From positions 18,351 to 82,350 of the forward strand of contig CAYMWP010000003.1 of NCBI GenBank assembly GCA_964393895.1: a stretch of DNA of 64,000 bases, given 5' to 3'. The stretch's first letter is position 1. Every line of letters starts with the position of its first letter. The notes beneath the pieces were generated by a model. That model was not told the origin of the DNA. It saw nothing but the letters and a program-made list of their open reading frames with translations, and made no database searches. A program made the translations under genes and the position numbers. Shown piece by piece: positions 1-60,765 of this stretch. The stretch is from an uncultured Anaerolineales bacterium (lineage in GTDB: Bacteria > Chloroflexota > Anaerolineae > B4-G1).

Positions 1-326
1 TCGTTCCTATCCAGACTGAATACTACGCCGCCCACACGCTGCTCTACTTTATCAGGCTGGTGCAGCGCGTGCGAGAAAAGACCAACCCGCGCCTGCAATA
101 TCGCGTGTTGGTGACGATGTACGACCGGCGCAACAAGATCTACCGGGTCATATTGGACCAGATGCAGCGTGGGCTGAGCAAGGTGCTCTTCAAGACGATT
201 ATCGAGGTAGATACCAAGTTGCGGGAAAGCCCGGTGTTTGGCCAGCCGATCACGCTCTACGCGCCGCGCACTCGTGGCGCCATGCAGTACCGCGCTCTGG
301 CCGAGGAGCTGATAAACTATGAGTGA
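1..326 (+). CDS. ParA/Soj-family partition ATPase, C-terminal part (5' end outside window)
   Basis: The frame is open from the window edge. Translation VPIQTEYYAAHTLLYFIRLVQRVREKTNPRLQYRVLVTMYDRRN... resembles the C-terminal half of ParA/Soj ATPases. The stop overlaps the next start by 8 nt. Confidence 0.7.
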   Translation, partial: VPIQTEYYAAHTLLYFIRLVQRVREKTNPRLQYRVLVTMYDRRNKIYRVILDQMQRGLSKVLFKTIIEVDTKLRESPVFGQPITLYAPRTRGAMQYRALAEELINYE

Positions 327-2052
327 TAATGACCTCAGAGATCATCTCAGTGGATTGTTCTCCGACATCGTTCCCGAACCGGATTTGGAGACGGAGGCTG
401 AGGCTGAGGAGGAGGAATTCCTCCCGCTAGAGGAAAGGGTCGTTTTCGGCCTCCTCGAAGATGATGTTGCCTTTGCCGCACCTGAGCGAACGGCGGCGGA
501 ACCAGCGCTATCGGCCCCGGTCGGGCCGGAAGGGAGCGGAGTAGAGGTAGACGTCTCCTCGAGGCGCGTGAAGAGAAGCGCAGCGACTCCTTCCTGGAGG
601 ATAACGCTGGGGAAACGGAGCATCAGTATTCTCAGCCTCCTGCTGTACGGAGTGCTTATTCTCGGAGGCGCCCCTCTCGTTTTCTTACTGGTCCGCTTCA
701 TTTGGCAGGGAGAGGTGGCCTGGTCGAGTTTGCCTTTCTGTCTCACGTTCTATACGCTGGCTGTCGTGGTAACGCTGGTACAATGGTTTTTTAATTCTTC
801 CCTGTCGAAAACTGCCCAGGAGGTAGAGGAGCGGCTCGGCGAGGCGCTGCGCTTGCGGACGTTTCTCGAGGGTCGGGTGCAGGAGATAGCCACCGCCAAC
901 GCTTCGTTGCAGAGACGGGTCTTGCAACTCCAGGCCGGAACCGAGATTTCCCGCTCGGTCATTGCGATACTGGAACTAGACAGATTGCTGCCAGAGACGG
1001 TCAGCTTGATCCGTGACCGCTTTGATCTCTATCACGTTGGCCTCTTTTTGATTGACCAGGCCGTCGAGAGCGCCGATGGGATGTGGGCAGTATTGCAGGC
1101 GGGTACGGGTGAGGTGGGCTTCCAGATGTTGGCGCAGGGCCATAGGTTTGCGGTAAACGACGAGTCGCTGGTGGGGCGTTGCATCCTCGACGCTCGGGCC
1201 CGTATCGCTCTGGATAACGCTGCGGCGCACGATTGGCTGCGGTACGAGGACGAGTCGCTAGGCCCAGGTGAAGAGGCCCTACATCCTGGCGGCGCGATAG
1301 ACGCCGTCGAGTACAATTCTCTATTGCCGAAAACGCGCTCGCAGATGGTCTTGCCACTGCTTGTTGACGGTCGGGTGATCGGCGCGCTGGACATTCATAG
1401 CACCGAGCGTGAGGCGTTCTCCAAAAGAGATATTCCCGCGTTTCAAGCGCTGGCCGATTACGTGGCGGCGGCCATCGGCAACGCGCGGGTATTTGCAGAG
1501 ACCCGATCTCGCCTGGAGGAACTCGTCCAGAGTAGTATCCGTGAACAGCGATCCAGGCTGGCACCTTCTCGCTCTGTTCCGTTGTACGAGCGCGTGCGAT
1601 CGGGCGTGCGGCCGTTTGGCGACGTCGTGCCGCCCGAAATCGAGCATGCGGTGACCGAGCGAGAGGCAGTGGTACGGTCCGACGTGAGCGCCGGCGGCCG
1701 AGAGTCCACACTGGTGGTGCCGGTTGCGTTGCGTGACCAGGTGTTCGGCGCGTTGGGGTTGCAGGAGGTGGAAACCGGGCGGCAGTGGACGGACGACGAG
1801 GTCGCTCTCATCGAGGCCGTGGCTACCCAGATGGCGCTGGCTATCGAGAACGCCCGCTTGTTAGAGGGCACCCGGCGGCGTGCCGAGCGGGAGCGCCTCA
1901 CCTCCGACATCACCGCCCAGGTCCGAGCTTCGACCGACGTGGACACCATCCTGCGCACGGCGATCCGGGAACTAGGGCAGGCGTTGCGCGCGTCTGATGG
2001 AGCGATTCGGCTGGGCGGCGGTGATGCCGGCTCTCTGCTATCTGAAGAGTGA
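319..2052 (+). CDS. Membrane-anchored GAF-GAF sensor protein with no output domain
   Basis: 577 aa ORF with an acidic N-terminus and two hydrophobic helices (ISILSLLLYGVLILGG..., LPFCLTFYTLAVVVTLV). Two GAF-type modules end in IGNARVF and IENARLL, followed by a conserved about 50 aa C-terminal tail. Confidence 0.8.
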   Translation: MSDNDLRDHLSGLFSDIVPEPDLETEAEAEEEEFLPLEERVVFGLLEDDVAFAAPERTAAEPALSAPVGPEGSGVEVDVSSRRVKRSAATPSWRITLGKRSISILSLLLYGVLILGGAPLVFLLVRFIWQGEVAWSSLPFCLTFYTLAVVVTLVQWFFNSSLSKTAQEVEERLGEALRLRTFLEGRVQEIATANASLQRRVLQLQAGTEISRSVIAILELDRLLPETVSLIRDRFDLYHVGLFLIDQAVESADGMWAVLQAGTGEVGFQMLAQGHRFAVNDESLVGRCILDARARIALDNAAAHDWLRYEDESLGPGEEALHPGGAIDAVEYNSLLPKTRSQMVLPLLVDGRVIGALDIHSTEREAFSKRDIPAFQALADYVAAAIGNARVFAETRSRLEELVQSSIREQRSRLAPSRSVPLYERVRSGVRPFGDVVPPEIEHAVTEREAVVRSDVSAGGRESTLVVPVALRDQVFGALGLQEVETGRQWTDDEVALIEAVATQMALAIENARLLEGTRRRAERERLTSDITAQVRASTDVDTILRTAIRELGQALRASDGAIRLGGGDAGSLLSEE

Positions 2053-2073
2053 CCGTGAAAGGACGCGGCAAAG

Positions 2074-4554
2074 ATGGCGCACATGAACAGAGATACAATG
2101 TCTGAAGAGATACACCAGCCAGTGGTCAGGCGGAGTATTAGAACGCGGCTCGTGGTGCTGCTGTTAGGTTTAGCCACGGTGTCGGTGTTGACCGTCGGTT
2201 ACTTGGGCGTTGACTCGGTACAGGACGTGGGTGAAAGCGCGCAGCGGATCAGCGCGGGGGCATTGCGTTCTCAGGCGGAAGAGTATTTGCGCCAGGTGGT
2301 CGTCGGTGATGCGCGGAGGAACGATCTCATATTGAAGCGGATACAAGGAGATGCCGCCAACCTGGCCCAGTACGCCGCAGGAATCTTTGGACAGCCCGAC
2401 GCTTTCACCAGCGGCGCCTATTGGCGGGCCGAGGACCACATGTTCGTTGGTCCCGATGGCCAGTATATGAACGACGAGACTGGCGCGAGCAGCGTCTTTG
2501 TCCCCGATTTCGCGGACGTGGACGAGGAGCTGCAATCGCTTCTGGAGTTGAGCGCCTACCTGGATTTCGTCTTTGCCCCGACCTACGAGAATGACGCCAA
2601 CACGGTGGCGATCTATCTGGGGATGGAGCGAGAAGTGACCCGCTATTACCCCAACGTCAATCTGGGTACTCTCATTCCGCCGGACTTTCAAATCACCCAG
2701 CGCCCCTGGTACGTCTCTGTCGTCCCGGAGAGCAATCCCGAGCGGGCGGTGGTGTGGTCGCCCGTCTACGTGGATGCCACCGGCCAGGGCCTGATGGTCA
2801 CAGCCGCCGCTCCCGTATACGCCGGCGGGGACGAATTCGTGGGAGCTATTGGCATTGACGTCACCCTCGGCGACATCAGCGTCAGCATCGAAGAGACGCG
2901 GTTGCTTGGCAGCGGCTACTCCTTTTTGCTCGACGAGACAGGGCACGCCATTGTCCTGCCAGAAAGAGGGTATCGAGACATCCTGGGACGTGATCCCGAG
3001 CTCGACGAGGTGTGGGCCGATCTGAGTGGAGTGACGACAGAGTTCGCCCCTGTGCTGGAAGCAATGATGGCCGGCTCGGTTGGCTTTGACACTCTGGAGG
3101 TAGGTGGAACGGAATTGTTAGTCGCTTATGCCCCGTTGGAGAGCACGGGGTGGAGCCTGGCCAACGTCGTTGACGCCGAAGCGGTTCTTCAGACTGTGGG
3201 TACGTTGCAGACCGAGCTGGAAGCTTCATCCAAATCACTGGTGCTGGCGCGCATCTTGCCCCTTGGTGGAGGTATCCTCGCCGTAGCGACCCTGGTTGGC
3301 CTTTTCTTCACCGTCCGGCTGGTTGACCCCATCAAAAAACTGGCGACAGCCGCTGTGCGGGTTGGGGCCGGGGAGTGGGATGTTGCGCTTCCACCGGCGG
3401 GGGATGACGAGATCGGCGCGCTGGCTCGAGTGTTCGGGATGATGGTCGCCCAGATACAGGAATTGGTTTCAGGTCTGGAACAGCGTGTGGCCGAGCGCAC
3501 GCGCACCCTGGAGCGCCGCGCTACTCAGATGGAGGCCGCGGCCCTGGTAGCCCGAGATGCTGCCGAGATCCGTGACGTGAACCAATTGCTCGACGAGACG
3601 GTACGGCTTATTTCTGAACATTTCGGCTTTTACCACGCCGGCATCTTTTTGCTGGATGACCAGGGGGAGTACGCGGTGCTGCAGGCTGCCTCGTCTAGGG
3701 GCGGGCAGCGCATGCTGGCGCGGGCGCACAAGCTAAAAGTGGGCGAGGTGGGCATCGTGGGATATGCGGCGGGGACGGGGAACCCTCGCATTGCGCTGGA
3801 CGTGGGGGCCGACGCCGTCTTTTTCGACAATCCCGATTTGCCCGAAACTCGCTCAGAGATGGCGCTGCCGCTAAAGGTACGAGAGCGAGTGATCGGGGTG
3901 TTGGACGTGCAATCCACGGAAGGCGCGGCCTTTTCCAACGAGGACGTGGCAACCCTCCAGATCATGGCCGACCAGGTGGCGCTGGCCATCGAGAGTGCTC
4001 GTTTGTTGGACGAGAGCCGGTCGGCGCTGCGAGAATTGGAATCTCTCTATGGACGAAGGACGCGCGAGTCCTGGCAAGAGCGTGTAAGTGCCTATCGTTA
4101 CACCGGTGTGAGAGTGGAGCAAGTCCCGTCGTTATCTCTCCCAGAGCTGGAGGACTCACTCTCCCGCCAGCAGCCGGCCGTCGTGCGTGAGGTTGACGGT
4201 CCCCGCTTGGTCGCCCCCATTCGCTTACGTGGGCAGGTTATTGGCTCCATCCTCCTGCGCCAGGAGCCTGACCAGGCCCCCTGGTCGTCGGATGAGCTGG
4301 CGTTGATTGACGAGGTCAGCACGCAGATCGGGCTGGCGCTGGAAAACGCCCGCTTGCTGGAGGAGACGCAGAAACGAGCAGAGCAAGAGCAAATGCTGGG
4401 CGAAATGACCGCCCGCTTTACTCGCTCCCTCGACGTGGATGGGTTGCTACGAGCCGCCGTGCGCGAACTGGGGCGCTTGCTGCCGGTCGAAGAGGTGTCG
4501 GTTCACGTGATCCCTCCCGAAGAGACTCGCTCGGCGCCAGCGGACGAGGAATGA
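2074..4554 (+). CDS. dCache-HAMP-GAF-GAF sensor protein with no output domain
   Basis: 826 aa. N-terminal TM helix, a periplasmic Cache-like region with an RPWY motif, a second TM helix, and a HAMP-like segment (DPIKKLATAAVRVGAGEWD...DEIGALARVF). Two GAF modules end in IESARLL and LENARLL, then the conserved tail. Confidence 0.85.
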   Translation: MAHMNRDTMSEEIHQPVVRRSIRTRLVVLLLGLATVSVLTVGYLGVDSVQDVGESAQRISAGALRSQAEEYLRQVVVGDARRNDLILKRIQGDAANLAQYAAGIFGQPDAFTSGAYWRAEDHMFVGPDGQYMNDETGASSVFVPDFADVDEELQSLLELSAYLDFVFAPTYENDANTVAIYLGMEREVTRYYPNVNLGTLIPPDFQITQRPWYVSVVPESNPERAVVWSPVYVDATGQGLMVTAAAPVYAGGDEFVGAIGIDVTLGDISVSIEETRLLGSGYSFLLDETGHAIVLPERGYRDILGRDPELDEVWADLSGVTTEFAPVLEAMMAGSVGFDTLEVGGTELLVAYAPLESTGWSLANVVDAEAVLQTVGTLQTELEASSKSLVLARILPLGGGILAVATLVGLFFTVRLVDPIKKLATAAVRVGAGEWDVALPPAGDDEIGALARVFGMMVAQIQELVSGLEQRVAERTRTLERRATQMEAAALVARDAAEIRDVNQLLDETVRLISEHFGFYHAGIFLLDDQGEYAVLQAASSRGGQRMLARAHKLKVGEVGIVGYAAGTGNPRIALDVGADAVFFDNPDLPETRSEMALPLKVRERVIGVLDVQSTEGAAFSNEDVATLQIMADQVALAIESARLLDESRSALRELESLYGRRTRESWQERVSAYRYTGVRVEQVPSLSLPELEDSLSRQQPAVVREVDGPRLVAPIRLRGQVIGSILLRQEPDQAPWSSDELALIDEVSTQIGLALENARLLEETQKRAEQEQMLGEMTARFTRSLDVDGLLRAAVRELGRLLPVEEVSVHVIPPEETRSAPADEE

Positions 4555-4560
4555 GGAGGA

Positions 4561-6690
4561 TTGATGACGATGCAGTGGCAATACAACCACTACGTGTTAG
4601 CCTTGGTCATAGTTGCGGCTATGTCGGCTGCCATTGCGTTCTTTGCCTGGAGACGCCGCCCGGCCTCCGGCGCTGCAGCGTTAACCTGGCTCATGCTGGC
4701 TGGGAGCGAGTGGGCACTGGTGTACGCGGTGGAAATGGCGAGTCTGAATCCGCCGATCAAGGTTTTGCTGTCTCAGGTGATGTACATTGGCGTTGTCAGC
4801 GTGCCAACGATGTGGTTCATCCTTACGGTGCAATACACCGGCCGGAAAAGATGGCTGACGCGCCGCAACCTGGTTCTCTTGATGATTATGCCGTTATGTA
4901 CACTGCTGCTTGTCTGGACTAGTGGTGTGAACGATGGACACGGTTTGATCTGGCGCGAAATCGAGATTGATACCAGCGTCTCGCCGGCGATTTGGGACTT
5001 GACTCATGGCGTGTTTTTCTGGGTTTATCTAGCGTATAGCTACTTGTTGGTTCTGTCCGGTTCACTCCTCGTTTTCCAGTCGCTCATCCGTTCGCCCAAG
5101 CTGTATCGCGGACAGGCCGTCGCGTTGTTGATTGCTGCGCTAACGCCGTTGGCGGGGAATGTGTTGTACGTCTCTGGCCTCGTCCCGTTTCCGGGCCTGG
5201 ACATCACGCCCTTTGCCTTTGCCTTGACCGGCTTGGCGATGGCCTGGGCTTTGTTTTACTTCCGGCTGTTGGACGTTGTGCCGGTGGCGCGCGAGGCCGT
5301 CATCGCAGGTTTGGCCGATGGCGTGATCGTGTTGGACGCGCAGGACCGTATCGTGGACCTCAATCCGGCCGCGGCACAAATCATCGGCCACCCGGTCGCA
5401 GAGGTCATCGGACAATCGGCCGGACACGTGTTGTTGGGTTGGGGCGACGAGGTCGGACGCTATAGTGATGTGACAGAGACGCGGGAAGAGATCGTTTTGG
5501 GTACAGGCGAGATGCAGCGCACTTTTGACTTGCGCATCTCTCCCCTGTCTGATAGGTACGGACAACTCACCGGCCGGCTGGTCTTTTTGCACGACATCAC
5601 TGAGCGCAGACGAATTGAGGAGGTGCTGCGACGCCGGGCCGTGCAACTTCAGGCGGCGTCAGAGGTGGCCCGCGACGCCGCTGCCGTGAGCGAGTTGGAC
5701 GAATTGTTGTCCCGAACCGTCAACCTGATACGCGAGCGCTTTGGATTCTACCACGTCTCCATTTTCCTGGTGGACGAGCGGGGCGAGTACGCCGTGTTGC
5801 GGGCGGCGACTGGCGAGATCGGCCGCCAGATGCTGGAGCAAGGGTATCGCTTGAAGGTGGGCCAGGAGGGCAGCGTTGGCTACGTCGCTGCGGTGGGTCT
5901 ATCTCGCATCGCCCTTGACGTGGGCGCCGGCGCGACCCGTTTCGACGATCCGTTCCTGCCAGAGACCCGTTCAGAGATGACGTTGCCGCTGCGTGTGGGC
6001 AAGGACACCGTCGGCGCCTTGGACGTGCGGAGCCGGGAGGCGGAGGCGTTCGACGAGAACGATGTGACCGTCTTGCAGACGATGGCTGACCAGTTGGCAG
6101 TCGCCATTCAGAACGCGCGCCTGCTCGGCGAGATGCAGCACATGTTGCACGAACTCCAGGTGGCCTCCGGCCGCCACACCCGGGAAATGTGGCAGGCCGA
6201 ACGGCCCAGAGGGTATCGCTATCGGGGATTGGGCGTTGAGCAACTCGCCGAGCGCCCCCCTGAGGTTGACCAGGCGTGGCAGTGCGGACGACCCGTAACC
6301 ACTCCCCGGCCTGCAGCGGAAGGCGACGGGGGAGACGCTATCGGCAGCCTGGCCGTGCCTCTGAAGCTGCGCGATCAGGTGCTGGGCGTGCTCAACCTGC
6401 GCTTTAGGGACGAGGCTACTTCGCCCGAGATGGCCTCGCTGGTCGAAGAGTTGGCCGACCGGCTGGCGCTGGCCCTGGAAAGCGCCCGCCTGTTCGAAGA
6501 GACCCAGTCCCGCGCCCGGCGCGAGGAAACCATCCGCCAAATCACCGAGCAGATGCGTCGCGCCGTGGACGTGGAGACTATTTTGCAGACCACCATCGCC
6601 CGCTTGGGAGACGCCCTGGGCGCCCCCCGCGTATACGTCCGCTTGGGTACCGATGTCGAAGAGTTGCCCAACGACGATAGAGCGAGTTGA
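4561..6690 (+). CDS. 7TM (histidine-kinase N-terminal 7TM-like)-PAS-GAF-GAF sensor protein with no output domain
   Basis: 709 aa. Multiple N-terminal hydrophobic helices, a PAS-like segment (ADGVIVLDAQDRIVDLNPAAAQIIG), GAF modules ending in IQNARLL and LESARLF, then the conserved tail. Confidence 0.85.
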   Translation: MMTMQWQYNHYVLALVIVAAMSAAIAFFAWRRRPASGAAALTWLMLAGSEWALVYAVEMASLNPPIKVLLSQVMYIGVVSVPTMWFILTVQYTGRKRWLTRRNLVLLMIMPLCTLLLVWTSGVNDGHGLIWREIEIDTSVSPAIWDLTHGVFFWVYLAYSYLLVLSGSLLVFQSLIRSPKLYRGQAVALLIAALTPLAGNVLYVSGLVPFPGLDITPFAFALTGLAMAWALFYFRLLDVVPVAREAVIAGLADGVIVLDAQDRIVDLNPAAAQIIGHPVAEVIGQSAGHVLLGWGDEVGRYSDVTETREEIVLGTGEMQRTFDLRISPLSDRYGQLTGRLVFLHDITERRRIEEVLRRRAVQLQAASEVARDAAAVSELDELLSRTVNLIRERFGFYHVSIFLVDERGEYAVLRAATGEIGRQMLEQGYRLKVGQEGSVGYVAAVGLSRIALDVGAGATRFDDPFLPETRSEMTLPLRVGKDTVGALDVRSREAEAFDENDVTVLQTMADQLAVAIQNARLLGEMQHMLHELQVASGRHTREMWQAERPRGYRYRGLGVEQLAERPPEVDQAWQCGRPVTTPRPAAEGDGGDAIGSLAVPLKLRDQVLGVLNLRFRDEATSPEMASLVEELADRLALALESARLFEETQSRARREETIRQITEQMRRAVDVETILQTTIARLGDALGAPRVYVRLGTDVEELPNDDRAS

Positions 6691-6737
6691 GAAATGGCAT
6701 ACGGCTCAACAGATACGTCGAGTTATTGATCGAGGAA

Positions 6738-7766
6738 ATGACGATGAGTGAGACTTCTCTCGAAGAATACAAACGGCTGCTGGAAAAACAGGGACGGGCG
6801 TTGGTGCAAGTCATCCAATCCGTGGCCCTGGGAGACCTGGACGTAGAGGTCGAGATTCCGGAGGGAATTCAGATGCTCTCCGAGTTGGCCGCCGGGTTAG
6901 AGATGATGATTGACCGTCTGCGGAAGGAGAAGGCTGAGCAAGAGCGGGCAGCGGAGGGCCAGCGTAAAGCGTTGGCTGAGGCGTTGCAGACGACGCGCGA
7001 GCTGACCGAGGAGCGGGATGAGACCCGGAGGCGACTGGAAGAACAAACCGCTCTGCGGGAAGCGGGCCTCATCCTCACCTCTGCACTGGATCAGAGCACC
7101 GTGTTGACCCGCCTTGCCGAGCAGGTATGTCGGGCGGTAGATGGCACCAGCACCTACATTTCGTCCTACGATCCAGAGACGACGGCCGGCGTCGTCTTGG
7201 CCGAGTATTACGGCCCGGAAGCTTGTGCCAAAGAGCGCGTATCCGATCTGGGGGAATCGTATGGCGTCGAGGAAAGCGTCGCTCTCGTCAACGCCGGCGT
7301 TCCTCACCAATATCACGTGGACGACCCTGACCTGGCCGAGTTCGAACGGGCCGCGCTGCGGCAGTATGGAGGCCAATCAGTATTGATCGTTCCCTTGCAG
7401 CTCCGCGCTCGAACCATTGCCTATGTGGAGTTGTGGGATAGCCGAGGACGAAGGGAGTTCACGCCGGAAGAGATCGCCCTGTGCCAGAGCGTCGTGCAGC
7501 AGGCTGCCATGGCTATAGAGAACGCCCGCTTGATCGAGCAGACCCAGGCCCGCGTCCGCCGCGAGCAGGTGTTGCGCGAAATCACCACCCGTGTGCGTAC
7601 CTTCACTGATTCTGATGTCATCCTGCGCGCCGCCGTGCGCGAGCTGGGCGCTGCCTTGGGACGGCCCGCTTTTGTCCTTTTGGGCAGCGCGGAGGAACTG
7701 TCGCCAGTGCTTGCGGAGGTGAACGACGACGACCAGGGGATGGCTTTGCGACAAGGAGACGAGTAG
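6738..7766 (+). CDS. Coiled-coil single-GAF protein
   Basis: The ORF track starts at TTG 6687. ATG 6738 is preceded by GAGGAA and is preferred. One GAF module ends in IENARLI, followed by the conserved tail. The stop lies 1 nt before the next start. Confidence 0.7.
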   Translation: MTMSETSLEEYKRLLEKQGRALVQVIQSVALGDLDVEVEIPEGIQMLSELAAGLEMMIDRLRKEKAEQERAAEGQRKALAEALQTTRELTEERDETRRRLEEQTALREAGLILTSALDQSTVLTRLAEQVCRAVDGTSTYISSYDPETTAGVVLAEYYGPEACAKERVSDLGESYGVEESVALVNAGVPHQYHVDDPDLAEFERAALRQYGGQSVLIVPLQLRARTIAYVELWDSRGRREFTPEEIALCQSVVQQAAMAIENARLIEQTQARVRREQVLREITTRVRTFTDSDVILRAAVRELGAALGRPAFVLLGSAEELSPVLAEVNDDDQGMALRQGDE

Positions 7767-7767
7767 T

Positions 7768-10700
7768 ATGCAAGAACTCGCAGCCAAGATCAGAGACGAC
7801 CTGGATAGGTTGGCGGAGGAGTACGAACGGCTGTTGCTGGAAATTCCCGGCTATCCCGGTATGGCGCAGCAGGCCAGGAGCGAGGCGGCCCGCAATGCCG
7901 TCCAATTGGTCGCCACCGGCCTAGAGGCCGGGGATCAAGATATGTTCGTGCAGTTCGTCCAAGCTGTGGCGGTCGAACGGGCGGCCCAGGGACTTGAAAT
8001 TGACTCCATACAACAGGCGTTGACCGCCCTGGTCGAGGTCGTAGAGCCTCTGCTCGACACTGTCGAGGCCGCCAGTTTTTTGTGGAAAGCGGTGATCCAA
8101 GTTAACACTACGCTCTCCCAGATGGCGATGGAGCGGGCGCGCTCTACCGAGGAGCGCTTCAAATTCCTCGCCGATAACATCACCGTTGGGGTCTTTGTTC
8201 ACCAGGACGGCATCCTGCGCTACGTTGGGCGCGAGGGGGCGCGCATCCTGGGGTACGACGATCCAGCCCAAGTCGTTGGCCGCTCGATCCTCGATTTTGT
8301 GCATCCGAGCGAGCAGAAGCGCATCGCCGACCTGGCCCGTCGCCGCGTCGCCGGCGAGCCGGTTCCAGACCAGTACGAGTCTCGCTTTATCACCAGGGAT
8401 GGCTCCCCTGTGGACGTGCATCTCTACAATACACTCATCGAGTACGAAGGCCGCGTTGCCACGCAGGGAGCGTTCGTAGACATCACCGCGCGCAAAGAGG
8501 CGAACGAGAGGGCTAGACGAGCACAGGAGGCATTACGGGCGATCGTTGACTCTATGCCGTTTGGCGTCATAGTCATCGGTAGAGACAAGATCGTTCGCCG
8601 CGCCAACCAGGCGGCTTTGGAGTTGATAGGGTGTGAATCGCAAGAGCAGATCGTTGGCAAGATCTGCCACGAGACTCTATGTCCGGCCGAAGTGGACAGA
8701 TGCCCCATCCTCGATCTAGGACAGGAACTCGACAGGTCTGAGCGAGTGCTCGTGACCCGAGAGGGGGAGCGTGTTTCCATTCTGAAGAGCGTCGTTCCCG
8801 TGACGCTGGATGGGGAAGAGGCTTTGCTGGAGACTTTTGTAGATATTACCGAGCGCAAGCAGGCCGAGCAGTCTGTTGCCGAGCAGCAAGCTTTCCTGCA
8901 GCGCGTGATTGATGCTGATCCGAACTTTATCTTTGTAAAGGATCGCGAGAGCCGCTTCGTGTTGGTCAATCAGGCCGTGGCCGATGCTTATGGTTCGACC
9001 CCGGAAGAGCTGATCGGAAAATCGGATGCCGATTTCAACCCTAATAGAGAACAAGTCGAAAACTTTCACCGGGACGACCTCAGAGTCATAGACGACCAGC
9101 AGGAGAAATACATTCCCGAGGAACCGATTACCACAGCCTCGGGCAAAGTGCGCTGGCTGCAAACTATCAAGCGTCCCCTAGTAGACGAGGACGGCGTGGC
9201 CCGGCGTTTGCTGGGGGTTTCCACCGACATCACCGAGCGCAAGCGGCTCGAACAAAGGATTCAAGGGTCGTTGGATCGTCGTGGTCGCCAGGTGCAGACC
9301 AGCACCGAGGTGGCCCAGGAGATCGCCGCCGCCACCGAGTTGGAAGAACTGTTCCGCCGTGTGGTCACGTTGATCAAGGAACGCTTCGATTATTATCACG
9401 CCCAGATATTCCGCTACGAGCCGGCGCTGGATGCCGTGTTGTTGGTGGTAGGCTACGGCGAGACCGGCGAGCGGATGCTGGTCGCCGGCCACCGCCTGGA
9501 GCTGGGGCGCGGCGTGGTTGGCACAGCCGCCTTTACCGGTCAATCTGTGTTAGCCTCAGACGTGGCCCAGGACCCCGATTGGGTCCCCAATCCCTTCTTG
9601 CCGGATTCCCAGGGCGAGTTGGCCGTGCCCATCAAGTGGCGCGACGAGGTGTTGGGCATTCTCGATGTGCAGAGCGAGACCGCCGGTGCTTTGACCGAAG
9701 AGGATCAACTCTTGCTCGAAGGGTTGTGTGGGCAGATAGCCATTGCTATCCAAGACACTCGCTTGCGCTTGGAGATGGAGGAGAACCTGCGTGAGCTCGA
9801 ACGACTCACTCGCGCCTCGATCCGCGAGGGGTGGGAAATCTCCCGGCGCGAGAGCGGTGCTGTGGGCTATCGCTTCGACGGGGCCAGCGTCGTCCCAACC
9901 GACGATTCATGGACGCGGGGACCGCAGGCCGGCGGCCGACCAACTGTCGCCACTCCTCTGGCGGTGCGCGGCGAGGTAATCGGCGCGCTGGGCGTGCAGG
10001 ATGACCCGCGCCATCCCCTTTCTCACGAGGACCTGGCGCTGGTCGAATTGGTCGCGGAGCAGGTGGCCCAGGCGTTGGAGAGCGCCCGCCTGTTCGAGCA
10101 GACCCAGGTTGCGTTGGATCAGACCGACGTTCTATACCGCGTTGGCCAGGCGCTCAACGTCGCTGCCAGCTACGATCAAATCGTCGAGGCTTTGAAACTG
10201 CACCCCATCGTCCACCAGGCCAGCCGAGGCGGTATGGGTCTCTTTAACCGTCCGTGGAGCGCCGCCACTGCCGGGAGTCCGTCCGGTGATAGCGTGCCGG
10301 AGTGGGTCGACATGGTCGCCAGTTGGCACGCGCCCGATCAACAGGCCCTCGCTTCCGTCGGTACGCGCTACGAGTTGGAGGCGTTCCCGGTGGCGCGCCA
10401 TTTTCGGCCGGACGAGCCTTTCATCGTCGAAGACATCGCGGACGATCCGCGGCTGGACGATAACATGCGCCAACTCTACCTGGGGCTCTTTCAGGCCCGC
10501 GGAACGATTTTCGTTCCTCTGGTGGCCGGCGAGCAGTGGATTGGCTGGCTCAACGTGCTGATGAACGAACCGGGCGCCTTTCCTGAGGATCAGGTGCGGA
10601 GCCTGATGACTCTGGCTGGACAGGCCGCCGTAGCTTTGCGAAACTTGAGCCACCTGGAGGAGATACGGACCCGCGCCCTTCACGAGCAATCTCTGCGCGA

Positions 10701-11769
10701 GATCGCGGCCCTCATTGCCGCCAGCCAAGACCTGGTGATGAGCTTGCCCGCTATCACCCAACACTTGCGCCAACTGGTCCCCCTGGACGTACTGACTCTG
10801 GCTACTTATACCCCCGGCGACCAGGAATACGTCCTCTTTGCTCCTTCCACCGGCGCGGATACGGAGGCCGATGACTTTGCCCTACCGGGTACTTATCTGC
10901 CGGTGGAGGGAACTTGTCCCGGTTGGGTCATCACTCACCGGGAGCCGTGGCTGGATGCGGACATTCGCCGGGAGATGCTTTTCCTGGAGGACGAACAGCT
11001 CGTCTCGGAGGGAATGATTTCGCGCTTATCTTTGCCGTTGCTGGTTGGGGAGCGGGTTGTCGGTGCCATCAACCTGGGCAGTAAACAGCCCGGAGTCTTT
11101 ACTACAGAGCAGCTGCCGCTCCTGCATCAGGTGGCTGACCAGATGGCGCTGGCTTTGGAGCGCACTCGTTTGTTGCAAGAAACCCGCAATGCCCTGGCCG
11201 AGGCCGAGGCTACCCACCGCGCCTACCTGCAACGTGGCTGGCGCGACTATTTGCGCCAGCAGGAGGCGTTGCGGCGAGGGGCCTTCCTCTACGACCGGAC
11301 GCAAGGAGCCGCCGTGCTGGACGGCTTGACCGAACCGGTAGCCGATCTCTGGCTGCCAGAGATGGAGCGCGCTTTGGCCCAGGGTCTCCCCACCGTAGCG
11401 GACATCGGTGGTGGCGAGGAGAAGCGAACGGGGTTGGCTATTCCCATCGTCCTGCGCGGTCAGACCATCGGCGTGCTGGGCATGGACGACCCCGCTGGCG
11501 AGCACGCCTGGTCTGAGGAAGACCGGGCCGTGATCGAGGCGGTCGGCCGGCAGTTGGCCCAGGCGCTGGAGAACGCCCGCCTGCTGGGAGAGACCCAATT
11601 GCGCGCGCAACGAGAGCGCATCATCGGCGACATCACCAGCCGCGTTCGCGCCTCTATGGATTTGGATAACATTTTGCGGACCACCGTCCGAGAGTTGGGT
11701 GCGGCCCTCGGCACCGATCGTGCCTTCATACGGCTGAACCCAGATGCGCAGTTACCTGAGAAACCCTAA
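7768..11769 (+). CDS. PAS x3 - GAF x5 sensor protein with no output domain
   Basis: 1333 aa. Three PAS-like units, each followed by DITERK or DITARK junctions. Five GAF-terminal motifs (IQDTRLR, LESARLF, LRNLSHL, LERTRLL, LENARLL), then the conserved tail. Confidence 0.85.
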   Translation: MQELAAKIRDDLDRLAEEYERLLLEIPGYPGMAQQARSEAARNAVQLVATGLEAGDQDMFVQFVQAVAVERAAQGLEIDSIQQALTALVEVVEPLLDTVEAASFLWKAVIQVNTTLSQMAMERARSTEERFKFLADNITVGVFVHQDGILRYVGREGARILGYDDPAQVVGRSILDFVHPSEQKRIADLARRRVAGEPVPDQYESRFITRDGSPVDVHLYNTLIEYEGRVATQGAFVDITARKEANERARRAQEALRAIVDSMPFGVIVIGRDKIVRRANQAALELIGCESQEQIVGKICHETLCPAEVDRCPILDLGQELDRSERVLVTREGERVSILKSVVPVTLDGEEALLETFVDITERKQAEQSVAEQQAFLQRVIDADPNFIFVKDRESRFVLVNQAVADAYGSTPEELIGKSDADFNPNREQVENFHRDDLRVIDDQQEKYIPEEPITTASGKVRWLQTIKRPLVDEDGVARRLLGVSTDITERKRLEQRIQGSLDRRGRQVQTSTEVAQEIAAATELEELFRRVVTLIKERFDYYHAQIFRYEPALDAVLLVVGYGETGERMLVAGHRLELGRGVVGTAAFTGQSVLASDVAQDPDWVPNPFLPDSQGELAVPIKWRDEVLGILDVQSETAGALTEEDQLLLEGLCGQIAIAIQDTRLRLEMEENLRELERLTRASIREGWEISRRESGAVGYRFDGASVVPTDDSWTRGPQAGGRPTVATPLAVRGEVIGALGVQDDPRHPLSHEDLALVELVAEQVAQALESARLFEQTQVALDQTDVLYRVGQALNVAASYDQIVEALKLHPIVHQASRGGMGLFNRPWSAATAGSPSGDSVPEWVDMVASWHAPDQQALASVGTRYELEAFPVARHFRPDEPFIVEDIADDPRLDDNMRQLYLGLFQARGTIFVPLVAGEQWIGWLNVLMNEPGAFPEDQVRSLMTLAGQAAVALRNLSHLEEIRTRALHEQSLREIAALIAASQDLVMSLPAITQHLRQLVPLDVLTLATYTPGDQEYVLFAPSTGADTEADDFALPGTYLPVEGTCPGWVITHREPWLDADIRREMLFLEDEQLVSEGMISRLSLPLLVGERVVGAINLGSKQPGVFTTEQLPLLHQVADQMALALERTRLLQETRNALAEAEATHRAYLQRGWRDYLRQQEALRRGAFLYDRTQGAAVLDGLTEPVADLWLPEMERALAQGLPTVADIGGGEEKRTGLAIPIVLRGQTIGVLGMDDPAGEHAWSEEDRAVIEAVGRQLAQALENARLLGETQLRAQRERIIGDITSRVRASMDLDNILRTTVRELGAALGTDRAFIRLNPDAQLPEKP

Positions 11770-11794
11770 CGGTTTTCTGAAATCTCGGGTTGGG
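11761..11794. repeat. Degenerate copy of the GGTTTCAGAAAACC-core palindromic element (inverted orientation)
   Basis: AAACCCTAACGGTTTTCTGAAATCTCGGGTTGGG. The left arm and core are conserved and the right arm is degraded. It contains the stop of the upstream GAF gene. Confidence 0.55.
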
Positions 11795-11805
11795 AGTAGC
11801 AAGCG

Positions 11806-14800
11806 ATGGTAAAGACTAGCGATAAGCAAAAAACCGAGGTGCAATTGGTCGAAGAGTTGCAAGAGCCGGAGGAGCAGCGCAAGTGGGCCGTAGAGTCCTT
11901 GCAGGCGAGCGAGGAAAAGTATCGCGCGATTCTCGAGAACATTGAGGAAGCCTATTACGAGGTTGACCTGGCTGGCAATTTCACTTTCTTCAACTCTATG
12001 CTGTGCCAGATGCTAGGGTACACGGCCGATGAATTGATGGGCGCGAACTACCGACGTTATACGGACGATGTGTACGCCGATATGGTGTACCGGATTTTCA
12101 ACAAGGTTTACCGCACCGGGGAGCCTACCAGGATATTGGATTGGGAGGTCAACAGTAAGGACGGGGCCAGGAAACTGGTCGAGTCATCCGTGTCGCTGAT
12201 CCGTGACGCTGCGGGCAAGCCCGTCGGGTTCCGTGGTATCGTTCGCGACGTCACCGGGCGCAAGTGGACGGAGGCCGAAATCGTCAAACTCAATCGCGAG
12301 CTGACCACCCTCAATAGGGTTGGTCAGGCCCTCACCTCCGCTCTGGATCTGGAAGAGACGTTGACCCTCATCACCGAGCAAGTGACCAATTTGCTGGGAG
12401 TAGAGGCGACCTCGGTGATCCTTCACGACGAGGTCCAGGATGACTTGTGTTTCGCTGCCGCGTCCGGCAGTGGTGCGGATTTCATACTCAATGCCCGCTT
12501 TGAATTGGGCCAGGGTATCGCCGGCTGGGTCGTACAGCACGGTGAAGCGGCGGTGGTACCCGACGTATCCCGGGACGTGCGTTGGTTTCGTGATTTTGAT
12601 CATAAGAGCGGCTTGGAAACTCGCTCGATCTTGTGTGTTCCCTTGCGAGCCAAAGGACAGATCATTGGCGCTATTGAGGCGGTAAATAAGTGGGATGGCG
12701 ATTTTGACCAGGATGATTTGCGGCTTTTGACCTCACTGGCGGCGCCGGCGGCCACCGCTATCGAAAACGCCCGCTTGTTCGGGCAGTCACAGGCTCGCGC
12801 CGAGGAATTGGCGGTACTGAACGAGTTGGGGCAGGCCCTCACCGCCCACCTCGACGTCGAAGGAGTGCTGGACGAAGCTTACCGGGGTGTCTCGCGCTTG
12901 ATGGATACCACTAATTTTTACGTCGCCCTTTGCGAGCCGGGTGAGGAGGAGGTTACGTTCGCCATAGATGTGCTCGAGGGAGAGGTGCGGAGGTCGCGCG
13001 AAACCCGCAGGGCCGGTCGTGGCCTGACCGAGCACGTCATTCAAACCCGCGAACCCTTGCTCATCGAAGAGGAGCTGCCCGAACGGTTGGAAGAGTTGGG
13101 AATTGCGTTGATTGGACGGATTGCTCTCTCCTGGCTGGGGGTGCCCCTCGTCGTCGGCGACCAGGTGCTAGGCGTGATGGCCGTGCAGAGTTACACCAGG
13201 CCCCGTCTCTACGGCCAGCGCGAGCGAGATTTGCTGGTCTCTGTTGCCAGCCAGGCAGCTATCGCCATTGAGAATGCCCGATCGTACGAGCAGGAACAGG
13301 CCCGCGCCAAAGAACTGGCCGTGCTTAACGAGCTGAGCCAGTCTCTCACCGCCAGCTTGAGCGTGGAGGATGTGTTGGAGGAGGCCTACCGGCAGGCCGC
13401 TCGCCTGGTGGACACGACCAACTTTTACATCGGCCTCTACGACTCGGATAAGGAAGAAGTGGCTATTCCCTTCATCGTCTCCAAGTCGGAGATTGACCGT
13501 CACATCACCGTCGTTCCTGCGGACCAGGGCTTTACCGGCTATATCATCCGCAATCGTACCGCCGTGTTAGTCGAAGAGAACGTGATCGAATGGTTGGAGG
13601 AGAACGGGATTAGCGTGATAGGGGAGCCGGCTCTTTCCTGGCTGGGAGTACCTCTGATCGTCGGCGACCAAGTGCTAGGAGTTATGGCCGTTCAGAGCTA
13701 TATCACCCCCCGCCTCTACGGCGAGCACGACCGCAAGTTGCTGACGGCCATTGCCGGGCCGACGGCTATCGCCATCCAGAACGCCCGGTTGTACGAGCAG
13801 GCGCAGCGCGAAATCGGAGAGCGCAAGCGGGCGGAGGCGGAGGTGCGACGGCGAGCGGAGCAGGCGGCGCTGACCTACAAGGTGGGCCAGCGCGTCAGCG
13901 GCGAACTGGCGTTGGACGAACTGCTATCCGAAATCGTGATTGCTGTGCACGATGCCTTTGATTACTATGGCGTGATGTTGTTGCTCGAGGGAGAAGCAGG
14001 TTTTCTGACCCTGCAATCCGCGGCTGGCGGCTATATTGACGTTCTTCCAACAGATATCGAGATCGCCGTTGGGGAGGGAATGATAGGGCGCGCGGCGGCC
14101 AGTGGTGTGGCCCAAGTCAGCAACGACGTCAGCCAGAACCCCTATTACGTGCGCAACGCGAATGAGGATACAAAATCAGAGTTGGCCGTGCCCATCGAGA
14201 GCGGCGGCAGGGTCATCGGCGTGCTCGATCTCCAGAGTGACGAGCTGGACGCCTTCGACGAGACCGACGTGATGTTGATGGAAACGCTGGCCGATCAAGT
14301 GGGTGTGGTGATCGAGAACGCCCGCCTGTACGAGGAAATCCAGCGTGAGTTGGCCGAGCGCGAGCGGATGGAAGGGGTGTTGCAAGAAACGCACGAGGAG
14401 CTAGAAAAATATACAACCATCCTGGAGCGCCAGACCGCGCGACTGCGAGTGGGGGCCGAGGTGACCCGCAAAGTTTCCGCTATCCTCGATGTGCGACAAC
14501 TTCTCGAAGAGACGGTGCGCCTCATCTCTAATGAATTTGGCTTTTACCACTCGGCAGTCTTCCTGGTGGGCGAGTCCGGCGAGTATGCCATCCTGCGCGC
14601 CGCTTCGTCCGCAGGGGGGCGCCGCATGGTGGAGCGAGGTTACCGGGTGCCGCTTGGTGGGAAAGATGCCGTGGGCTACGTCGCAGCGACAGGTGAACAC
14701 TGCATTGCCCTCGATGTGGGTGAGGGTGCCGCGATGCTTCCCTTTGATCGGGGGGGAGCTGTTGCTTTCAATAACCCCGACTTATCTGACACCCGTTCGG

Positions 14801-17800
14801 AAATGGCGCTGCCCCTGAGGATGCGTGGTCGCACCATCGGCGTGCTGGACATTCAGTCCACTCAAGAGGCTGCTTTCTCCGAGGAGGACGTGGCGGGGTT
14901 TCAGACGCTGGCCGACCAATTGGCCGTTTCCATAGATAACGCCCGCCTGGTAGAGCGCACAGGAGAACAGTTGCGTGAGCAGGAACGTCTCTACGGTGAG
15001 TACAGCGCCTCCGCCTGGGCCGAGTTGCTGTCGCCCGTTCGACCGCTGGGTTACATCTACGATCGCATTGACGTCTCGCCGATATTGGATTCGCCGGCGC
15101 CGCTTGATTTGGCCCCGCAGCGCGTCGAGGCGGAGACGACGGGCGCAATATTGACCATGCCCCTCAAGGTGCGGGGTCGCACGGTCGGCATCCTGGGCGT
15201 AGAAGAGAGCGATGCCGCCCGTGAGTGGTCGTCTGAAGAGGTCGCCATCGTCGAGGCAGTGAGTGACCAGGTAGCCATGGCGCTGGATAGCGCCCGTTTG
15301 TTTGGAGAGGCCCGCACTCGCGCCGAGGAGTTGGCCGTGTTGAACGAGTTGGCTCAATCTCTCACTGCCCGCCTGACCGTGGACGATGTGCTGGAAGAGA
15401 CTTACCAGGGCGTGTCTCGCTTGCTGGATACCACTAACTTTTACATCGGTCTCTACGACCCACAAAAGAACGAAATATCCTTTCCTTTTAACATCACCGA
15501 ATCGGCGGTGGACGAACAGATCGTCGCCATCTCGGCCGATCAGGGGTACGCTGGCTACATAATGCGGAACCGCACGAGCCTGCTCCTCACGGAGGACACC
15601 ATAGAGCAGGTAGTGGAGCGGACGGCCAAGATGGGTATTGAGCATATCGGGCAGTTGGCCCTTTCTTACCTGGGAGTGCCGTTGGTGGTCGGCGACCGGG
15701 TGCTGGGGGTCATGGCGGTTCAAAACTATACCGTGCCCCACGTCTACAGCGAGCACGACCGGAACTTGTTGACGGCCATCGCCAGCCAGGCGGCCATTGC
15801 TCTTCAGAGCGCCCATCTTTTCGAGGAAGCGCAACGGAGGGCGGCTCAGTTGGCGGCGGCTGCCGAGGTCGCCCGGGACGCCACAGCCATCCTGGAAGTG
15901 GACCAGTTGCTAGACGAGACGGTGCACCTCATCTCGGAACAGTTTGGTTTCTACCACGCCGGCGTGTTTTTGCTGGACGAACGGGGCGAGTACGCCGTTC
16001 TGCAAGCGGCCTCTTCCGAGGGCGGGCGCCGCATGTTGGAGCGGGGGCACAGACTGAAGGTCGGCGAGGTTGGCATCGTCGGCTACGCCGCGGCCACGGG
16101 AGAACCTCGCGTCGCTCTGGACGTGGGACAGGATGCCGTGCACTTTGCCCACGACGATCTCCCCGATACCCGTTCGGAGATGGGATTGCCGCTCAAAGTG
16201 CGGGAGAGAGTGATCGGCGTGCTGGACGTTCAATCTGACCAGACGGCCGCTTTCTCCGCTGACGACGTCGCGGCTTTGCAGACGATGGCCGACCAGTTGG
16301 CTATTGCCATTGCCAACGCTCGCTTATTTCAAGAGACCCGCTCCGATGTGTTGCGCCGCGCCCTCATCAACGAGGTGCTCCAGGCCGCTACCGCTTCGCT
16401 GGATCCAGAGGAGTTGCTTCACCAGGCCGGAGAGGTCATCTCCCGGCGACTAGAGTCGCCCACCGCGCTCTTTGTCTGGGAGGCGGAGGATAAAGTGTTC
16501 CGTACGGTCGCCGTCCACGACTCCCAGGCTGCCGACGTCTCGTTACCTGGGGTATTTCAGCAAGTGACTCGCGGGGTAGCCCCGGTTCTCTTTGAGGCGG
16601 CGGAGAGTCGGCGCACTGCCGTTTTGGAGCTGACCTCCGATGCAAGCGGCCCGTTGGTCACTGCGGCCAGGTGGGCGCGGGCGCAATCCATCATTTACGT
16701 TCCTCTGATATCCCGTGATCAGGTACTGGGTTTGCTTGGTATTGGGAAACTCGAGGAGCAGCCTGTCGTGGACGTCGAGTTCACCGAACTCGTGGCCGCC
16801 AACCTGACCGTGGCCGTGGAAAACGCCCGCTTGTACCAGGAGGCAGTGCAAACCGCCGAACGCCTGGCAGAGGTAGACCGGCTCAAGAGCCAATTCCTGG
16901 CTAACATGTCCCACGAACTGCGCACACCGCTCAACTCTATCATTGGTTTCTCGCGGGTCATTCTCAAAGAGATTGATGGCCCGCTTACCGATATGCAGCG
17001 CACTGACCTGCAATCTGTCTACGATAGCGGGCAGCATTTGTTGGGGTTGATCAACGATATCCTGGAAGTGGCCAAGATAGAATCTGGCAGGATGGATTTG
17101 GTCTCGGAAGTGGTGAATTTACAGGATATTATCAGGGGCGTCATGTCAACCGCCATCGCGCTGGTCAAGGACAAGCCCGCCGTCGAATTGCAGCAGTCTG
17201 TTCCCCAAGACCTGCCCACGATTATGGGCGACACGCGGCGTATCCGCCAGGCGATCCTCAATCTCGTCTCGAACGCTGCCAAATTCACCACGGAAGGCTT
17301 TATTCGTGTGGAAGCCGAGGTTGTAGATACCGAGGTGATCGTCTCTGTGGCCGATAGCGGTGTCGGCATCCCGCCAGACAAGATTGATATGATCTTTGAG
17401 CCTTTCACTCAGGCCGACGCATCCACTACCCGCGAGACTGGGGGCACGGGGCTGGGCCTTTCCATCACCAGCAGCTTTGTCGAGATGCACGGCGGTCGTA
17501 TGTGGGTGGAGAGCGAGGTGGGTAAAGGCTCTACATTCTACATGGCATTGCCCATTCATACCCTCTCTTCTATTGAGGAACAAGTGGAGGAGGAACAGCC
17601 AGAGTTAGAGCCTGGACAAAGAGTCGTTCTCTGCGTAGAGGATGACGAAGGAGTCATCACCCTCTTCCGCCGTTACCTGAGCAAGCGGGGCTACAGGGTA
17701 GTCGGTCTCTCCAACAGTATGATGGCGTTGGAACGAGCGCGAGAGTTGCAGCCGTTCGCCATAACGTTGGACGTGATGATGCCCGGCAAGGATGGCTGGC

Positions 17801-18369: not shown

Positions 18370-18374
18370 CAAAG

Positions 18375-21385: not shown

Positions 21386-22223
21386 CCCCCAGCAGCCCGC
21401 TCCCCAGCCACTGCACGAGTGTCATCCGCTCGCCCAGCAACAAGAAGGCCAGCACCAGGCTGACTGTGAGTTCCAGTAGGCCGGCCAACGCCGTCTCAAT
21501 TCCTCCCAGCCGCTCCAGCGCGAAAAACATTGTCAACCGAGATAGGGCGGTCGTCAGGCCCAGCGCCAGTATAGCCTCCCATCCGGTGGTCGTTATAGTC
21601 TCCAGCGGCTCCGCTTGTATCACCCGCGCGATGCCGACTATGCAGGCCATGGTCGTCAGGATGTAGAGCGCCGCCTTGCGCGCCGGCACGTCGGTCAGCA
21701 CCCATTGACCCAGCACCAGATGCCAGCCATAAGTCGCTGCCGAGGCGACCATCAGCGTCACCCCTAGCCAGTTCAGTTCTCCGGTACCGGCGCGCGTCAG
21801 CAAATAGATGCCCAGTGTGGAGAGCCCAAGCCGCGCTACGGTGAGGCGCGTCAATGGCTGCCCGGACGCAAAGAGGAAAAGCACCACCCACAACGGGTAG
21901 AGAGTGTTGAGCAAAGAGGCGCGGGAGGCATCTATGTGTAGGAGGCCCGTGTAGTAGAGCAGCGACCCAAAGCCGTTGACTGCGCCTACTCCGATACAGC
22001 CGATGAGATCACGCCAGGATATGATGATTTCGCGGCGCCAAAAGATCACGAAAGCCAGCCAGAGAAGCAATGCTGCTACCACTGTGCGGAAGGCCACCAG
22101 CGTATATGGCGTGACGCCATAGGCATAGGCCATCTTGCCCAGAATGGGCGCCCAGCCCAAAAAGAAGCTGGCCACAACCGTGGCTGCGACTCCCTGACGT
22201 TGTTCACGGCTTAGACTAGACAT
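21306..22223 (-). CDS. EamA/DMT-family transporter
   Basis: About 10 hydrophobic helices and duplicated EamA-like halves. The start was moved to the internal ATG at 22223 (MSSLSREQRQ...), because the longer ORF N-terminus is not transporter-like. Confidence 0.75.
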   Translation of the reverse strand: MSSLSREQRQGVAATVVASFFLGWAPILGKMAYAYGVTPYTLVAFRTVVAALLLWLAFVIFWRREIIISWRDLIGCIGVGAVNGFGSLLYYTGLLHIDASRASLLNTLYPLWVVLFLFASGQPLTRLTVARLGLSTLGIYLLTRAGTGELNWLGVTLMVASAATYGWHLVLGQWVLTDVPARKAALYILTTMACIVGIARVIQAEPLETITTTGWEAILALGLTTALSRLTMFFALERLGGIETALAGLLELTVSLVLAFLLLGERMTLVQWLGSGLLGVSLILMSRDPGMHLAEGNVPLEWKLE

Positions 22224-22281
22224 TTCATCTCCGGCCGGCTCTGCTTCCGTGTTGTGTTGTTGACCTACCTGTGTTACACTC

Positions 22282-60751: not shown

Positions 60752-60765
60752 GGTCCGGTGCGCCT

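Follow-up and report, generated by a model that had tools for sequence, protein, structure and literature searches.

The GAF domains of phytochromes and cyanobacteriochromes begin with a linker helix, a return helix and a first strand (β1), followed by about 100 residues that complete the fold and include the ligand or bilin pocket. In a 64,000-nt stretch of DNA from an uncultured Anaerolineales bacterium (Chloroflexota, Anaerolineae; assembly GCA_964393895.1, contig CAYMWP010000003.1, forward-strand positions 18,351 to 82,350; this whole stretch is called the window below), five sensor proteins, O1 to O5, keep such a beginning at their C-termini and then stop. Judged from its sequence, this tail is a self-contained, dedicated, GAF-derived C-terminal module that retains the first three elements of a phytochrome-type GAF. 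It is covered by no Pfam or NCBIfam model and is undescribed there and in the searchable literature, in which no account of it was found; databases leave it unannotated or absorb it into the generic label "GAF domain-containing protein".

The kinship with phytochrome-type GAF starts extends over about 45 residues. Against solved structures, the tail profile matches residues 10–53 of 8w26 (E = 3.5e-14), residues 134–181 of 6oap (E = 7e-13) and several cyanobacteriochromes, and its nearest relatives of known structure are the initial helices and strand of GAFs from phytochromes and cyanobacteriochromes (SyB-Cph1, 8w26/2lb5; 6oap; NpR6012g4, 6bhn; E from 3.5e-14 to 1e-7). The order of elements is the same, and both groups share the pattern RERL..IT..IR.SLD...IL.T.V.E....L..DRV.V. 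However, the tail proteins end 1–65 residues (median 16) after β1, so that the remaining fold residues and the pocket are absent, and the tails carry a signature of their own (A13, R15, E16, E42-L43-G44) that sets them apart as a group from true GAF starts.

Domain models give the same picture. The tails alone align only with positions 1–26 or 1–38 of the 133 positions of the Pfam GAF profile, at 15–17 bits, below the 22.4-bit cut-off, and NCBIfam returned nothing specific for them. With respect to the GAF families (PF01590, PF13185, PF13492), homology of a segment is present (8w26, 6oap) and the tail is collinear with the internal GAF starts of the neighboring protein O6, but a match to the whole fold of about 130 residues, with its five- or six-stranded sheet and flanking helices, is not, as O1 to O5 end 8–24 residues after β1. 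The likeness to the first helix and strand of a further GAF domain, which the original prediction had noticed from the letters alone, therefore stands. Other helical modules fit less well. A HAMP domain has a connector of about 14 residues between its two helices, compared with a turn of only 3–4 residues between those of the tail, and Pfam gave no HAMP match on the tails. The segment 'LGVSRALVRL' superficially recalls a DNA-binding helix-turn-helix, a candidate that was rejected: by homology it is the α-β1 region of a GAF, structure prediction gives a coil in place of a recognition helix, and no helix-turn-helix family matches.

Five tails at the ends of five sensors

The tail genes lie at positions 319–18369 of the window, where six open reading frames (ORFs), O1 to O6, run in one direction and are tightly packed (gaps of -4 to 36 nt). 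The Pfam content of O1 to O5 is limited to sensor domains (GAF, PAS, HAMP, dCache, HisKA_7TM), with no output domain, and O6 is a candidate partner for them. The genes are as follows ("miniGAF" denotes a compact GAF-type domain described below):

319..2052, + strand: O1, 577 aa; hydrophobic N-terminal region, GAF, miniGAF (nt 1513-1845), tail; no output domain.
2074..4554, + strand: O2, 826 aa; dCache, HAMP, GAF, miniGAF (nt 4027-4341), tail.
4561..6690, + strand: O3, 709 aa; HisKA_7TM membrane region, PAS, GAF, miniGAF (nt 6145-6477), tail.
6687..7766, + strand: O4, 359 aa from TTG 6687 or 340 aa from ATG 6744; weak HAMP-like coiled coil, one full GAF, tail.
7768..11769, + strand: O5, 1333 aa; three PAS, five GAF-type domains including two miniGAFs (nt 9787-10077, 11194-11568), tail.
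11806..18369, + strand: O6, 2187 aa; hybrid histidine kinase of giant size; PAS, nine GAFs (one of them a miniGAF, nt 14971-15285), HisKA, HATPase, two REC; no tail.

The true start of O4 is uncertain, because the longest ORF begins at TTG 6687, overlapping the O3 stop, whereas the public gene call (P0236, 340 aa) begins at ATG 6744.

The C-termini of O1 to O5 share a module of about 58 residues, made up of the exit helix bearing the ENARL motif, a short return helix and a β1-like strap, which is equivalent to only the first quarter of a GAF domain. A variable acidic extension of 8–24 residues follows it. Scores in the list below are for the profile of all tails (a hidden Markov model, HMM) or for leave-one-out profiles; identities and ratios of nonsynonymous to synonymous substitution rates (dN/dS) refer to orthologs in L001, a locus of a Thermoflexia relative, and the predicted local distance difference test (pLDDT) to AlphaFold2 (AF2) models:

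1846..2019, + strand: O1 tail core, 58 aa, ENARLLEGTRRRAERERLTSDITAQVRASTDVDTILRTAIRELGQALRASDGAIRLGG; then a 10-aa acidic extension and the stop at 2050-2052; tail HMM 97 bits; leave-one-out 49.4 bits.
4342..4515, + strand: O2 tail core, 58 aa; then a 12-aa extension, PEETRSAPADEE; leave-one-out 23.6 bits; 84.5% identity, dN/dS 0.11.
6478..6651, + strand: O3 tail core, 58 aa; then a 12-aa extension, DVEELPNDDRAS; leave-one-out 31.7 bits; 93.1% identity, dN/dS 0.045.
7518..7691, + strand: O4 tail core, 58 aa, after a full GAF and not a miniGAF; then a 24-aa extension, its first part predicted helical; leave-one-out 36.5 bits; pLDDT 86-92.
11569..11742, + strand: O5 tail core, 58 aa; then an 8-aa extension, DAQLPEKP; leave-one-out 54.2 bits; pLDDT about 93; 91.4% identity, dN/dS 0.074.

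All five peptides that the original prediction had quoted were found at the C-termini of these co-directional ORFs, and in each the conserved core starts at the last ENARL. The end coordinates it attached to them are correct as ORF stops but not as ends of the peptides, which finish 8–25 residues earlier and are followed by the variable acidic extension. The most conserved columns of the tail are E1, R4, L5, A13, R15, E16, I22, T23, D31, L36, A39, E42, L43, L47, V/I54 and L56.

Do the tails resemble one another more than any GAF start would? At the internal junctions of O5 and O6, the same position does open the next GAF and the chain runs on into a full domain. When a profile was built from four tails, using a 39-aa core without the ENARL linker, and scored on the omitted fifth, that tail reached 23.6–54.2 bits, compared with 2.0 bits or less for the best internal GAF start in O1 to O6; the similarity among the tails thus exceeds chance. 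In both these scores and those from related loci (see below) the tails form a group of their own, closer to each other than to internal GAF starts. The tail HMM found no further copies in the remaining 52 kb of the window.

Selection on the tail

The tail is the most constrained part of O1 to O5. Compared with the L001 orthologs, the tail core is 84.5–93.1% identical, with a dN/dS of 0.045–0.11, while the rest of the same proteins is 41–73% identical, with a dN/dS of 0.21–0.30 where measurable, and the extension after the core only 33–62% identical. Because identity is highest and dN/dS lowest there, the tail is not a relic. A functionless remnant of a truncated terminal GAF would account for its collinearity with a GAF start and for the stop right after β1, but would be expected neither to evolve under tighter constraint than the remainder of the protein nor to recur, as the tail does, in 245 distinct copies that end at the same place in different Chloroflexota classes; we give this explanation next to no chance.

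The five tails also differ consistently from each other. Among themselves the window tails are 41–52% identical, against 84–93% to their L001 orthologs, and database matches sort into the same five tail types as the window, so that the types are paralog-specific and maintained. Such types, as read from the alignments, fit specific rather than generic contacts.

Spread, terminal position and absence of output domains

A search with the tail alignment returned 83 proteins, in all of which the match lies 0–50 residues from the C-terminus. A scan of species-representative genomes, with the single O5 tail as query, gave 15 loci, nearly all in metagenome-assembled genomes of Anaerolineae, Thermoflexia or Chloroflexia. 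In six-frame translations of these loci the C-terminal tails scored 45–102 bits with at most 59 residues after them, compared with at most 37 bits where a GAF starts internally. When 1.84 billion representatives were searched in full with HMMER, 14,971 proteins were found at E<=1e-3; since many weak matches to GAF junctions inflate whole-protein scores, the top 150 representatives were rescored per domain, and 76–78 of them have the tail at the C-terminus. Some of the internal high scorers are tail-type GAF starts that run on into full domains. A homolog search with the O5 miniGAF plus tail gave only 2 matches.

Altogether, 245 distinct C-terminal tail copies were collected from the sampled Chloroflexota. 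In this set the stretch that follows the core is 16 residues long at the median; E, G, P, A, S and D are frequent in it, and 78% of copies have a net negative charge there. All of the full-length carriers scanned (53/53) contain only GAF, HAMP, PAS, dCache or MASE11 domains, and no kinase, cyclase, phosphodiesterase, receiver or DNA-binding domain was found among these 53. The homologs of O4 illustrate this exclusion: 45 of 50 have the tail, and all three homologs that contain REC, GGDEF or kinase domains belong to the remaining five.

The tail is therefore not a generic coiled coil without conservation beyond the locus, since it is conserved far outside it under strong purifying selection, and the suggestion of a dedicated module is well founded in this respect. 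For practical use we propose a family, "GAF-stub C-terminal module of Chloroflexota sensors", defined by a tail profile score of at least 45 bits, a start at ENARL, an end within about 70 residues of the C-terminus and no output domain. Defined in this way it takes in O1 to O5 and the 245 distinct copies elsewhere, the 53 carriers having been scanned for output domains.

Some relatives depart from this architecture. In P0183, P0189, P0106, P0105, P0207, P0217 and P0218 the tail is also found inside the protein, where a short linker and then a miniGAF, or a GAF remnant shorter still, come after it. Repeats of the form tail-miniGAF-tail result, and the family thus shuffles the two half-units. 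Apparent mini-proteins of 129–142 aa with a tail (P0046, P0065) were rejected as such. They stem from L020 and L021, long-read metagenome contigs in which the array genes are broken into short ORFs, apparently by frameshift errors, and are thus assembly artefacts, fragments of frameshifted genes. A similar frameshift, splitting a tail from its gene, may be present in L010 at 16663-18418.

Predicted structure and the miniGAF

The miniGAF is a compact domain of 97–125 residues with a Trp-bearing N-terminal helix followed by a 'GYRYDG..V.P' hairpin. Its six copies in the window, all on the + strand at the positions listed above, are always preceded by a 'FGFYH'-type GAF. A miniGAF directly precedes the tail in O1, O2, O3 and O5, an ordinary full GAF taking this place in O4. 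Pfam recognizes only profile positions 55/85-133 in the miniGAF, i.e., the last 40–60% of the GAF profile, and when the tail sequence is placed before a miniGAF the two give a single full 1–133 match that is 10–16 bits higher. The same order, tail then miniGAF, exists in natural proteins (P0105, P0207, P0218, P0183). Together these observations at first suggested a circular permutation or a split domain, the latter having been among the original proposals.

A model of O5 residues 1132–1333, predicted with AF2 from a 40-sequence alignment of trimmed representatives, has a pLDDT of 89.2 and a predicted template modelling score (pTM) of 0.72. The miniGAF forms a complete five-stranded fold with its own N-terminal helix, at pLDDT above 90 and without need of the tail. 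One continuous helix (119–164) comprises α5, ENARL and the linker, and is followed by the return helix (168–183); the strap 'GTDRAFIRL' has a pLDDT of about 90 but no strand assignment. The O4 model is weaker overall (pLDDT 70.6), its tail being the most confident region, and gives the same local picture, with a helix at 241–285, a return helix at 290–305 and a coil strap ('PAFVLLG'). In two proteins with different preceding GAFs, the tail is thus predicted (pLDDT about 81–93) as a helical hairpin without β-pairing. In a Foldseek search the O5 model falls among GAF proteins, with its best overlay on the tandem-GAF phytochrome Cph2 (4bwi; query-based template modelling score, TMq, 0.50 over 171 columns), in keeping with a hairpin placed in this model as the beginning of a further GAF would be.

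Could the tail nevertheless complete a GAF? It is possible that it would do so in trans, giving its first helix and strand to an incomplete GAF elsewhere, such as the untailed miniGAF of O6 or the first miniGAF of O5, by analogy with donor-strand exchange in pili. The tail does correspond to GAF profile positions 1 to about 45, the gain of a full Pfam match and the natural tail-miniGAF proteins described above are what this would predict, and the kinases of the cluster usually have one untailed miniGAF. The full-match test is weak, however, because any GAF start placed before a miniGAF would lengthen the Pfam alignment alike, and the only candidate for an incomplete GAF, the miniGAF, is predicted to fold completely by itself, while the strap is not a strand in either model. 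Moreover, a miniGAF adjoins the tail in only about 43% of tail carriers. Counts do not match either: the simple scheme of one tail per orphan miniGAF was rejected, as the window has 5 tails for 6 miniGAFs and L005 has 4 for 5. With O4 showing a full GAF before its tail, the tail does not look, in these models, like part of a split or permuted GAF, and we consider complementation of a partner GAF very unlikely; the idea of a split-domain piece finds no support in the models.

Alternatively, the tail could fold back in cis on the preceding miniGAF, the two together forming one permuted GAF. The full-length match in the permuted order and the direct succession of miniGAF and tail in four of the window proteins would agree with this arrangement. 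Yet O4 and about 57% of carriers have an ordinary full GAF before the tail, miniGAFs in O5 and O6 do without a tail, and no strand is added to the miniGAF in the AF2 model. On these grounds, the model, the O4 architecture and the prevalence of other GAF types before tails, a cis permutation was dropped as extremely improbable.

A folding-back hairpin could also be purely structural, as far as the models go. The main rival to a signaling role holds that the hairpin is a passive cap that only ends and stabilizes the exit helix or the dimer coiled coil of the last GAF. The predictions for O5 and O4, in which the hairpin folds back along its own helix without strand pairing, are what a cap would look like; the geometry should bring the strap as far as the ENARL part of its own GAF, and the conserved small or hydrophobic residues A13, V/I54 and L56 fit such packing. 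It is also in line with a cap that the tail follows many different GAF types. The sensors could then act in another manner, as ligand buffers or by pairing with the kinase in mixed dimers, through GAF and miniGAF modules that are almost the same in both. Across the sensors, the main GAF is 48–75% identical to the O6 GAF at residues 1345–1507, the closest pair being O2 aa 482–644 (75%), whereas sensor-to-sensor pairs are lower (32–58%); the closeness of the O2 and O6 GAFs suggests, at the level of sequence, a shared ligand, mixed dimers or a recent exchange between sensor and kinase. On the other hand, if the tail were no more than a cap, one would not expect it to show the highest conservation within each protein or to keep five paralog-specific types across genomes, and kinases and other GAF proteins with outputs do without it. 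We therefore regard the cap as a serious but somewhat unlikely explanation.

The gene cluster

Tail genes occur as same-strand arrays of 2–8. Wherever the gene after the array is fully visible (the window, L001, L003, L004, L005, L007, L011, L013, L016 and L021), it lies on the strand of the array and encodes a tail-less multi-GAF histidine kinase, O6 in the window. Most of the loci L001–L015 were found through an O5-like tail, which belongs to the gene just before the kinase; four look-ups started from other tail types and show the same cluster. Further genes complete the cluster in the window:

3..326, + strand: ParA/MinD-like ATPase gene, of which only the C-terminal part falls within the window; shares 8 nt with the start of O1; 51% identity (tblastn) to the ParA-like gene of L016.
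18375..20042, + strand: O7, 555 aa; threonine-synthase-like pyridoxal phosphate (PLP) enzyme fused to a C-terminal receiver; ThrC 267 bits against a 303-bit cut-off.
20039..21385, + strand: O8, 448 aa; REC, HisKA, HATPase; overlaps O7 by 4 nt; orthologs in the same position in L001 and L007.

The gene for the ThrC-like receiver protein directly follows the kinase gene in six loci (the window, L001, L005, L007, L016, L021), and O7 is likely a downstream response regulator of the cluster. A PLP enzyme joined to a receiver is an unusual combination for such a regulator. The presence of O8, with its REC-HisKA-HATPase architecture, indicates that the cluster encodes a multi-step phosphorelay. An EamA transporter gene is often found near the ThrC-like receiver gene, in the window at 21306-22418 on the - strand.

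Within the array or next to it, eight loci (the window, L001, L003, L007, L013, L016, L020, L021) have a ParA/MinD-like ATPase gene whose Walker A motif is deviant; this suggests that the cluster products form a positioned assembly. Might the tail or its acidic extension be the handle of this ATPase, attaching the sensors to a positioning system and not to the kinase? The recurrent neighborhood, with the ATPase gene running into the O1 start in the window, and the highly conserved arginines R12 and R15 of the tail helix would be compatible with such a tether. Known ParA/MinD partners, however, act through basic N-terminal peptides, whereas the extension here is acidic and poorly conserved, and we see a ParA handle as most improbable.

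Just downstream of the signaling cluster, a polyphosphate kinase gene (24210-26420, - strand) adjoins a gene for a fusion of metallophosphoesterase, Ppx/GppA domain III and HD (22787-24223, - strand). The G+C content of the window is 0.70 at 32001-34000, 0.50–0.53 at 60001-64000 and about 0.60 elsewhere.

A possible transmitter end for output-less sensors

The module is real and terminal, excludes output domains, is strongly constrained, is predicted to form a hairpin and lies in a conserved gene cluster. How could it work? Its three retained elements are an inter-domain helix that continues the ENARL exit helix of the last GAF, a return helix of 16 residues and a β1-like strap, with a short, presumably disordered acidic end. 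The hairpin, predicted to fold back along the exit helix, marks the end of a large Chloroflexota family of sensors without enzymatic or DNA-binding output and may provide these sensors with a shared transmitter surface. Input domains (dCache, 7TM, PAS, HAMP, GAF) would move the helical spine of the sensor, and the terminal hairpin would report the state of the spine to a partner from the same operon. The most likely partner would be the giant multi-GAF hybrid kinase, so that many sensors would feed one kinase, which may in turn phosphorylate the ThrC-like receiver protein, perhaps in a larger assembly positioned by the ParA-like ATPase.

The constraint on the tail, its paralog specificity, the exclusion of output domains and the synteny with the kinase gene all point to a common docking or transmitter end read by the kinase complex, a role that we propose tentatively and hold at a little under an even chance. 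Of the original suggestions, a docking element and a signaling helix are both plausible in view of the gene context. Several points weigh against it. As discussed, the fold-back of the hairpin is what a structural element would also show. The GAF that the sensors share with the kinase offers another coupling route that needs no tail, and no element of the O6 kinase was identified as a receptor for the tail. In addition, the sampling through O5-like tails biases the apparent link with the kinase, and the look-ups from other tail types reduce this bias only partly.

A more elaborate arrangement can be envisaged, in which the tails are assembly elements of an unrecognized multi-sensor complex. 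Each paralog-specific hairpin, possibly donating its β1 strap, would have a docking site of its own on the giant kinase or on a neighboring sensor, giving a body resembling a chemoreceptor array that the ParA-like ATPase would position and that would control the threonine-synthase-like enzyme by phosphorylation. We consider this unlikely.

Genome annotations contain many sensor proteins without an output domain, and how they signal is rarely understood. One small terminal module under strong constraint is common to thousands of them here, encoded in a conserved operon that has one giant kinase. This gives a testable handle on the way in which many inputs might be wired to one kinase in Chloroflexota, a phylum whose signaling has barely been studied. 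The tail also shows that part of a widespread domain can turn into an independent module.

Comparison with known signaling hairpins and helices

Beyond the phytochrome-type GAF starts from which the tail appears to derive, three known systems invite comparison. Tandem-GAF proteins (PDE2A, PDE5/6, Cph2) have the same succession of a GAF, a long connecting helix and the start of a next domain (TMq 0.50 for 4bwi and 0.38–0.42 for PDE5/6). In these, however, the next domain is present in full, with an output domain after it.

The dimerization and histidine phosphotransfer (DHp, HisKA) hairpin of histidine kinases is also a helical hairpin that directly continues a coiled-coil signaling helix, and a dimer of tails could, like it, form a four-helix cap. 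Differently from DHp, the return helix of the tail is only 16 residues long, neither O1 to O5 nor the tails match HisKA, the tail has no conserved His column, and the proteins end after it, with no ATPase domain following.

The signaling hairpin tip of methyl-accepting chemotaxis proteins (MCPs) is comparable in its way of working only. There is no sequence relation, with no MCPsignal match in the window proteins, the 53 carriers or the tails; compared with the long antiparallel coiled coil of MCPs, the hairpin of the tail is very short, CheA and CheW are absent from the cluster, and an array formed by the sensors would be conjectural. What the two have in common is that variable sensors end in a highly conserved helical hairpin and that a single kinase could receive input from many of them; in addition, the cluster contains a ParA-like ATPase gene, as do some chemosensory clusters (PMC11407121, PMC3964821).

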